Shown one piece after another: positions 8,510 to 10,137 of a DNA stretch of 64,000 bases. Positions within the stretch are counted from its first letter, which is position 1. Every line of letters begins with the position of its first letter. The position numbers and the translations under genes were made by a program. Source of the stretch: Escherichia coli 042 (GTDB lineage: Bacteria; Pseudomonadota; Gammaproteobacteria; Enterobacterales; Enterobacteriaceae); NCBI RefSeq assembly GCF_000027125.1, contig NC_017626.1; one strand, 5' to 3'. The notes under the pieces were generated by a model that worked only from the letters and a program-made list of their open reading frames with translations, was not told the origin of the DNA and did no database searches.

Positions 8510-10137
8510 TTATTCTTCGTCTTCGGTGTCTTCGTCGTAGTCAATATCGTCAGGCTGTTCTGAATCAGAGAGAACGTTTAGCGTAAAGCTATAGTCGTCC
8601 TGATCCCATTCGCATTTGCTCAAAATGGCACGCGGAATTTTTACCAGCGTCAGGTTAGGGAAGTCCGCGCCTTCAGTCATAAAGGCTTTGCAGCAAATCA
8701 GTAATGTACGTTCAGTTCCTACCTCTTCACTCAGAACTTTCAGTTGTTCATAAGCCAAAGAACCGGTAGTGACGTAGATGTGGTCAGTTTCGGTGCTGTA
8801 ACCGTGATTCCAGTATTGAGTCTGGCTTGGTGCATAGGTGAAGTTCATATGTTTGCACATGGCTTCAGCAAGCATTTCAGGATTGTAATATTTATTTATT
8901 ACCCAATTACCCCAAGTATCTTTTTTAAGCAATGAAGGTGCTAGACTCAAATAACGAAAACCTCCACCACCTTGCCAGCTTACAGATTTTGTAATACCGC
9001 CTAAATCTTTCCCATCAATCACTTTTTTCATACGCGGAACAATATGAGTCCGACAGTGGTCGCCTAATTCAACCATAATCCACTGACGCCCCATCTTTTG
9101 TGCTACGGCCCCTGTTGTGCCTGAACCAGCAAAGGAGTCTAGAACAAGATCACCATTGTCAGTTGCAATCTCCAGTATTTTTTTTATAAGAGCTTCCGGC
9201 TTAGGTGTATCAAATGCACTTATAGTAGGAATCACCTTCTTAATTTCGGCTTTTGATGTCCTGTTACTTCCAACTTCAGAATGAAACCATATCGTTTCTG
9301 GCGGTCTACCTGACGAACTATCAGCATATACACGAAAATATGGAGTCCAACCATTTCGTCCTTTCGACCAATCAATTCTCCATTTCTCCTGATCTATTTT
9401 TTGTACGCCCCAACGCAACGTCCATCAGTTCCATCTTGGCGCTTTGGAAAAATTTCTGTGCCATCGGGGGCAACAAGAGGGAAATACATTGTTGGGCGAT
9501 CTTCTCTTTTATCTGCTTGTCCCATTGCCCTTAGCGGTTTTAGGTAGTAAGGATTGCCGCTTGGATCTACTTTATCGTAATGGCTAGGTAGATCATTGAG
9601 GGACAGTGGTTGTCTTTTTACTTTGAATTTTGACTGATCTTTCGCGTACACTAATATGTGATCATGGCGAGAAGAGAAAAATGCAGCATCCATTCTTGGG
9701 CTATCGGATTTTTCCCAAATAACATTTGAAATAAAGTTATTCCTTCCGAATATTTCATCACAAAGACATTTTAAATAATGAACTTCGTGGTCATCAATTG
9801 TTATCCATATAGAGCCATCTTCAGATAATAAAGTGCGTAATAATTCTAACCGATCTCTGATCAAGCAAAGCCATAGAGAGTGTTCAAGTCCATCATCGTA
9901 ATGTGTAAAAGCACTTCCAGTATTATAAGGAGGGTCGATAAATATACACTTCACCTTCCCCGCATACTTCTGCTCCAGTGCCTTCAACGCCAGTAGATTA
10001 TCCCCATGAATCAGCAGATTCTCACTATCCGCATCACCATAAGATAACTCCTTATCTTCGAGCAGAATACGCGGCTCCAGACGAGGACGCTTATGCTTAC
10101 CAATCCAGTTAAGTTCTAATTTTTGCTTCGTTGACAT
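8510..10137 (-). pseudogene. mod: Type III R-M Mod methyltransferase (beta-class N6A/N4C), frameshifted in this sequence
   Basis: Two ORF-track pieces (9394..10137 and 8510..9418) carry IFIDPPYNTG (motif IV) then DSFAGSGTTG (motif I). The frames are joined if one copy of the tandem CAACG CAACG at plus 9411-9420 is removed (giving ...DGTDGRWGVQKIDQ...). Confidence 0.8.

Follow-up and report, generated by a model that had tools for sequence, protein, structure and literature searches.

In this study, we analyzed a 64,000-nt stretch of the Escherichia coli 042 genome (hereafter the window) and found that mod, its type III DNA methyltransferase gene, is very probably a fixed, inherited pseudogene in a decaying five-gene defence operon, and not a switch. 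The pseudogene occupies positions 8510..10137 on the minus strand and, by the list of open reading frames (ORFs) and PADLOC, belongs to the type III beta-class N6-adenine methyltransferases. As the preliminary description of this DNA had stated, it is split on the minus strand between two ORFs, one at 9394..10137 (247 aa, ATG start, N-terminus MSTKQKLELNWIGK...) and a second at 8510..9418 (302 aa). The two ORFs share 25 nt (9394-9418, minus strand), and this overlap is the sole interval able to contain the frameshift. Translation terminates at the TAG at 9394-9396 after 247 residues, and the DPPY half of the gene is cut off from the FAGSGTT half.

An intact mod is present in E. coli 55989 (WP_000105162.1, 542 aa), and the window gene is identical to it in the alignment except for a 1-bp gap. 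In the intact allele, DPPY (aa 68-71) is followed by a central variable region and then by FAGSGTT (aa 336-342). Judged from these motifs, the order is that of the beta class, which bears out the class assignment made earlier. The gene matches the PADLOC model MTase_III with 966.9 bits (E 9.4e-292), its Pfam domain is PF01555 in precomputed annotation, and its top relative among solved structures is EcoP15I Mod (E 1.1e-33). The gene also contains, in its target-recognition region and a short distance past the frameshift, an imperfect tandem doublet of 21 bp (9347-9386, 1.9 copies, 80% match).

The site CAACGCAACG, reported previously at plus-strand positions 9411-9420, is indeed present there. 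Comparison with intact alleles indicates that it is the remnant of an ancestral CCAACGCCAACG from which one C of the junction CC (about 9416) is gone. On the coding strand, the alignment pairs GGA CGT TGG CGT TGG GGC GTA in 55989 with GGA CGT TG- CGT TGG GGC GTA in the window, and CCAACGCCAACG on the plus strand corresponds to coding CGTTGG CGTTGG, an in-frame hexamer doublet specifying R-W-R-W. By these alignments, the mod lesion is a 1-bp deletion (CC to C on the plus strand, a G on the coding strand) in an ancestral in-frame doublet. With a 1.8-kb query, hits at 99.9% identity were obtained in 65 complete E. coli genomes, all of them one base longer than the query; with a 201-nt query centred on the site, all 65 spanned 202 nt with a single gap and zero mismatches. 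The window's mod deletion was seen in none of these 65 genomes carrying the locus, in which mod is annotated as a site-specific DNA-methyltransferase, and neither the mod nor the ietH frameshift (see below) is present among the 5,426 complete RefSeq E. coli genomes searched. A 42-mer spanning the deletion likewise had no exact match in 100,044 species-representative genomes. Over 14.9 kb, the differences between the window and 55989 are limited to four substitutions and two single-base gaps.

More distant relatives were also compared. A database search for Mod homologues gave thousands of sequences, 22 of which were aligned, and the motif DG[S/T][D/E]G[R/A]WRW was found in all 15 of those with a matching central region. 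Homologues containing [R/A]WRW include proteins from Salmonella, Aeromonas, Vibrio, Yersinia, Sinorhizobium, Methylococcales, Desulfobacteraceae, Nitrospira, Bacteroidota and others, and W241 of Mod is nearly invariant in the homologue alignment. Six relatives (from Klebsiella, Citrobacter, Raoultella, Pectobacterium and Lonsdalea) have conserved flanks and a different centre, corresponding to Mod residues about 140-300. Because the centre is swapped while the flanks are conserved, the central region appears to be a swappable target-recognition domain, and the frameshift lies inside it. Shuffling of this kind is expected for the target-recognition domains of type III systems.

Res, encoded directly downstream, is intact (5637..8507, minus strand, 956 aa), as had been described, and contains SF2 helicase motifs and a C-terminal PD...EPK nuclease motif. 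It scored 2119 bits against the PADLOC model REase_III and matches Pfam ResIII; its match to EcoP15I Res is weak (E 8.3e-5). The MTase_III and REase_III matches together uphold the original identification of a type III Mod/Res pair. E. coli, Klebsiella, Aeromonas and Nitrospira all retain the motifs ATGVGKT (Walker A), MDEAH and, C-terminally, PDFV...EPK; from these motifs Res is predicted to have an ATPase part resembling SF2 helicases and, at its C-terminus, a PD-(D/E)xK endonuclease. One substitution in Res, E649K, is derived and falls at a variable position. In the intact gene, the mod stop and the res start are 2 nt apart, with mod directly upstream.

Three further genes precede mod on the same strand. 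ietS (10147..12534, minus strand) encodes an intact S8 family peptidase of 795 aa (PADLOC IetS, 1202 bits), and ietA (12544..13524, minus strand) encodes an intact AAA ATPase of 326 aa, identical to that of 55989 (PADLOC IetA, E 3.9e-105). The third, ietH (13550..16398, minus strand), encodes a DrmD-like SNF2 helicase (PADLOC DrmD, E 3.4e-201) and is frameshifted. The gene order is SNF2/ietH-ietA-ietS-mod-res with spacings of 2-25 nt, so that the five genes form one operon. NCBIfam agrees with the PADLOC gene calls, at sub-threshold scores. The IetS difference D512G was considered as a compensatory, toxin-inactivating change and rejected, since G512 is ancestral and matches Klebsiella. A 97-aa ORF (5255..5548, minus strand) lies 88 nt downstream of res and is identical in 55989; neither PADLOC nor NCBIfam matches it to a family, the Klebsiella locus has a different gene in its place, and its membership of the operon is uncertain.

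The intact SNF2 protein has 949 aa, with Walker A K65 and DEAH D165. In the window, ietH consists of an 85-aa N-terminal fragment (16141-16398), which ends just past the Walker A motif GLGKT, and an 865-aa remainder (13550-16147). The deletion site is located at 16168..16172 on the plus strand, where AAAAA on the coding strand has become AAAA (at 16172); the longer A run was found in all 65 complete E. coli genomes. The break comes behind codon 75, so that Walker A is severed from the remainder of the protein, and the shifted frame ends at residue 85. A look-up of the 85-aa IetH fragment returned the double-mutant haplotype and one SRA assembly, L013 (Logan SRR23880901). Positions 1-11546 of L013 are identical to positions 6142-17686 of the window over 11.5 kb except for an additional C in mod; L013 therefore combines the ietH frameshift and res K649 with an intact 542-aa mod. 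Because of this combination, the simplest history is probably that the ietH frameshift (with E649K) came first and the mod deletion later. L013 could also be a mod revertant rather than an ancestor, which would be a hint of reversibility.

Four other explanations of the split gene were weighed. The preliminary description had attributed it to a 5-bp CAACG tandem duplication inserted in a single-unit gene, removal of which would restore an ancestral ...GRWGVQK.... Deletion of five bases does fuse the frames into one long ORF of 540 aa containing ...DGTDGRWGVQKIDQEKW...; this is expected, since -5 and +1 are equivalent in frame, and the repaired product is two residues short. The extra base in 65 of 65 complete genomes contradicts a duplication as the cause. 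A single CAACG as the ancestral state is likewise contradicted. Intact homologues with two in-frame CAACG units had been named in the preliminary description as evidence that would overturn the duplication, and every intact homologue does hold both units plus one base (CCAACG CCAACG, RWRW). The proposed peptide GRWGVQ lacks two residues of the WRW motif that is kept even in distant homologues and includes the nearly invariant W241, and the intact protein has 542 aa, not 540. Moreover, two-unit 5-bp repeats occur at chance level (68 in the window vs 61 in shuffles), and another pentamer doublet in mod, GAGAAGAGAA at 9669, is harmless. The duplication is hence hardly credible. Just as improbable is a sequencing or assembly artefact, in which a homopolymer miscall would hide a gene that is intact in the organism. 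In its favour, each lesion removes 1 bp from a short homopolymer (CC or AAAAA), a typical error class of some platforms. However, 166 indexed blocks of public assemblies contain the exact 247-aa truncated Mod, frameshift tail CVGAYKK included, and carriers of the allele include ERR2720672, GCA_029362025.1 and GCA_027979275.1. Four independent public contigs (from two NCBI assemblies and one SRA-derived assembly, plus the NCBI contig L011) match the window with 100% identity along 11-13 kb, both deletions included. No protein was called across mod in L011, consistent with pseudogene annotation, and both truncated products were called on two gut-metagenome scaffolds. In addition, 44 kb of core genome in the window (dsbD-aspA-groEL-frd-mutL-hfq-purA) shows 0 indels against the closest complete E. 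coli genome, with 68 single-nucleotide substitutions over 24 kb and 298 over 20 kb. These recurrences indicate that the mod deletion is a genuine inherited mutation.

A genuine deletion might still act as a reversible, phase-variable off-switch, in which frequent gain and loss of a base in the repeat would toggle Mod together with restriction. Type III mod genes are classic phase-variable loci. This membership (PMC4490391), the repeat context of the lesion and the intact mod of L013 in an otherwise identical haplotype all favour such a switch. As in the phase-variable mod genes of Haemophilus, Neisseria and Helicobacter, a frameshift in a repeat context interrupts a type III mod while res stays intact. 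However, the tracts of phasevarion genes are either long homopolymers, such as the 10-12 G of Hpy99XXI (PMC4490391), or arrays of many tetra- or pentanucleotide units, and they differ in unit number from strain to strain and also inside a strain. The mutated tract here is a dinucleotide (GG/CC) within two hexamer units, far under the lengths that slip usefully. It is invariant in length in intact relatives, both in the 65 complete genomes, all identical at the mod site, and in distant homologues, and Tandem Repeats Finder, applied to the whole operon, gave no long simple-sequence tract, just imperfect doublets of 11 bp and 21 bp. The off state appears fixed in the lineage, the deleted state being identical in 4/4 independent contigs compared, and the second, unrelated frameshift in the operon points to decay. 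A switch is accordingly very unlikely. The doubt about phase variation that had been expressed at the outset was justified, and of the two outcomes then offered, an off-switch or decay, decay is the better one and the switch lacks supporting evidence. Leaky recoding is a highly improbable alternative as well: a -1 slip on TAC AAA AAA TAG would give some full-length Mod and low-level methylation. The downstream mod frame is indeed -1 relative to the upstream frame, and the overlap contains a run of six A followed by TAG, where rare -1 slippage is possible in principle, the P-site Lys-tRNA on AAA re-pairing perfectly one base back with the stop codon in the A site. Slippage of the IS1 type on A6 is established. 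Nevertheless, the product would carry CVGAYKK in place of WRWGVQK and so would lose the conserved WRW, W241 included, and the downstream stimulatory structure is not significant (-20.8 kcal/mol, z -1.7; 11 of 200 shuffles do equally well). The slippery run is unchanged in the intact allele and thus was not selected for recoding. Programmed -1 frameshifting was rejected on the same two grounds, structure and product. Internal restart was rejected too, because the AGGAG...AUG just past the stop opens a 3-codon ORF that is in neither mod frame.

The pseudogene and its operon were compared with known systems. With type III restriction-modification (R-M) systems of the EcoP15I type, the locus shares a beta-class N6-adenine Mod in which motif IV precedes the target-recognition domain and motif I, a res located 2 nt 3' of mod, a Res with SF2 motifs and a C-terminal PD-ExK, and a central target-recognition domain swapped among otherwise near-identical relatives of Mod. 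It differs in that Res is only remotely similar (E 8.3e-5) and the window Mod is a pseudogene. Furthermore, classical type III systems are without SNF2, whereas the Mod/Res family of the window almost always has a co-conserved SNF2 gene upstream. Type III enzymes characteristically hemimethylate a short asymmetric site, and their ATP-dependent cleavage needs a pair of unmethylated sites in inverse orientation. For O104:H4, PMC11963381, citing Fang et al. 2012, gives an asymmetric ACCACC 6mA motif with its enzyme unassigned. O104:H4 carries an intact mod allele, making ACCACC a candidate motif for Mod.

The remainder of the operon corresponds to ietHAS (Liu-DS4; Nucleic Acids Res 2026), for which a frequency above 1.5% among E. 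coli genomes is reported (PMC13069673); an ietHAS-type locus was found here in 65-73 of 5,426 E. coli genomes. The two share an SNF2 protein with K65 (Walker A) and D165 (DEAH) numbering, the AAA ATPase IetA and the S8 protease IetS. K65 and D165 of IetH are the residues mutated in PMC13069673, and the ATPase mutants lose anti-phage activity and are cytotoxic on induction. In contrast to that published loss, which came from ATPase point mutants, ietH in the window is frameshifted just past Walker A. By gene content, the window locus is a degraded member of ietHAS, with all three family identities and no functional IetH predicted. The ietHAS paper (PMC13069673) does not mention the adjoining Mod and Res, and non-random co-localisation of RM III with ietAS in E. 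coli has been reported (bioRxiv 10.1101/2022.08.21.504612). DISARM class 1, which combines DrmD with DrmA, DrmB/DUF1998, DrmC and DrmMI, was rejected: the SNF2 protein scored 661.9 bits against an NCBIfam DrmD_b cut-off of 950, and the operon contains no DUF1998 or PLD gene.

Examination of distant Mod homologues revealed a conserved frame in which an SNF2 gene is followed by a slot and then by Mod and Res. The slot holds AAA_21 and DUF4276 in Aeromonas, AIPR in Vibrio and Ohtaekwangia, DUF2130, an AAA protein and AIPR in Nitrospira, and IetA and IetS in Klebsiella; it is empty in Sinorhizobium. Identities of SNF2, Mod and Res are 71/74/69% for Aeromonas and 44/65/45% for Nitrospira. In a census of 80 species-representative loci, from a search with 594 confirmed genome hits, 24 loci were evaluable, and an orthologous SNF2 gene lay upstream on the same strand in 22 of the 24, spanning many phyla. 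Between SNF2 and Mod there was no insert in 6 of these 22 loci, and 16 had inserted genes of 0.9-5.7 kb, among them HerA, a PD-T4-6-like kinase, PDC-S02, PDC-S06, PDC-S13 and SMC-like ATPases. Embedding of defence genes in hosts such as Hma, BREX, DISARM and type I R-M is a published concept (bioRxiv 10.1101/2024.01.29.577857), and the present arrangement shares with it the variable cargo between conserved host genes on the same strand; the difference is that the host here is the SNF2-Mod-Res trio, and the text of that preprint, as searched, does not mention SNF2, DrmD or ietAS. Taken from these gene neighbourhoods, IetH may resemble the helicase of the host rather than an acquisition by IetAS, which is possibly a new point. 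A further proposal, which we consider tentative and somewhat unlikely, is that a widespread type III-like host, SNF2-Mod-Res, has IetH as its third core gene, that swappable abortive-infection cargo uses or depends on this helicase, and that loss of SNF2 followed by loss of Mod reflects functional coupling. If so, helicase loss would make the methyltransferase dispensable or harmful, and the two lesions would not be unrelated accidents.

The operon is situated in a genomic island. One island end carries tRNA-Phe (20842-20917) and a gene for a 420-aa integrase (together 19382-20917), and since this tRNA gene adjoins dsbD and aspA, it is taken to be pheU. In strain BEC1-S17-ESBL-09, the defence module lies about 3.6 Mb from pheU. 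To the left (window 1-5250), the island is a mosaic of IS remnants (IS30, IS3 and IS110), and the autotransporter gene pic lies at the edge of the window. A pheU island with pic at its left end resembles the 117-kb pheU pathogenicity island of enteroaggregative E. coli 042. A complete 768-bp IS1 (18257-19024), with a recognised InsA and terminal repeats, separates the defence operon from the island integrase; 55989 lacks it, and the junctions overlap by 9 bp. Contigs assembled from short reads of the lineage end inside this IS1, suggesting that it is shared in the lineage.

As to consequences, loss of one G from the ancestral CGTTGG CGTTGG in the target-recognition domain of mod brings translation to a stop after 247 residues, and with the catalytic DPPY half separated from the AdoMet-binding FAGSGTT half, no methyltransferase would be made. 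Methylation by this system would then be absent from the window lineage, as far as its sequence can tell. Type III Res requires Mod for site recognition and complex assembly. The dependence of Res on Mod for DNA recognition and assembly is restated in PMC4659465, and the full-length res is on these grounds expected to be inert, not dangerous. It has probably also lost translational coupling and would be poorly translated, given that res begins just 2 nt past the mod stop in the intact gene. The mod lesion appears to be one step of decay, ietH having probably been struck earlier by another 1-bp deletion; with the IetH ATPase essential in the published system and ietH broken here, the operon as a whole has probably ceased to function in this lineage. 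This decay may be neutral or may reflect selected loss.

A caution for sequence interpretation follows from this case: restoring a frame by removing a short tandem repeat does not prove that the repeat is the lesion, since -5 and +1 are indistinguishable by frame, and comparison with intact alleles is needed to decide. The mod gene itself is an ordinary pseudogene, in a locus already covered by the published ietHAS system and the RM III co-localisation. As a natural ietH-null, mod-null background with ietA, ietS and res intact, the allele could be used for testing the dependence of IetAS toxicity on the helicase and that of Res on Mod. A more useful lead than the mod lesion is that the published IetH is located within a conserved SNF2-Mod-Res frame with diverse cargo.
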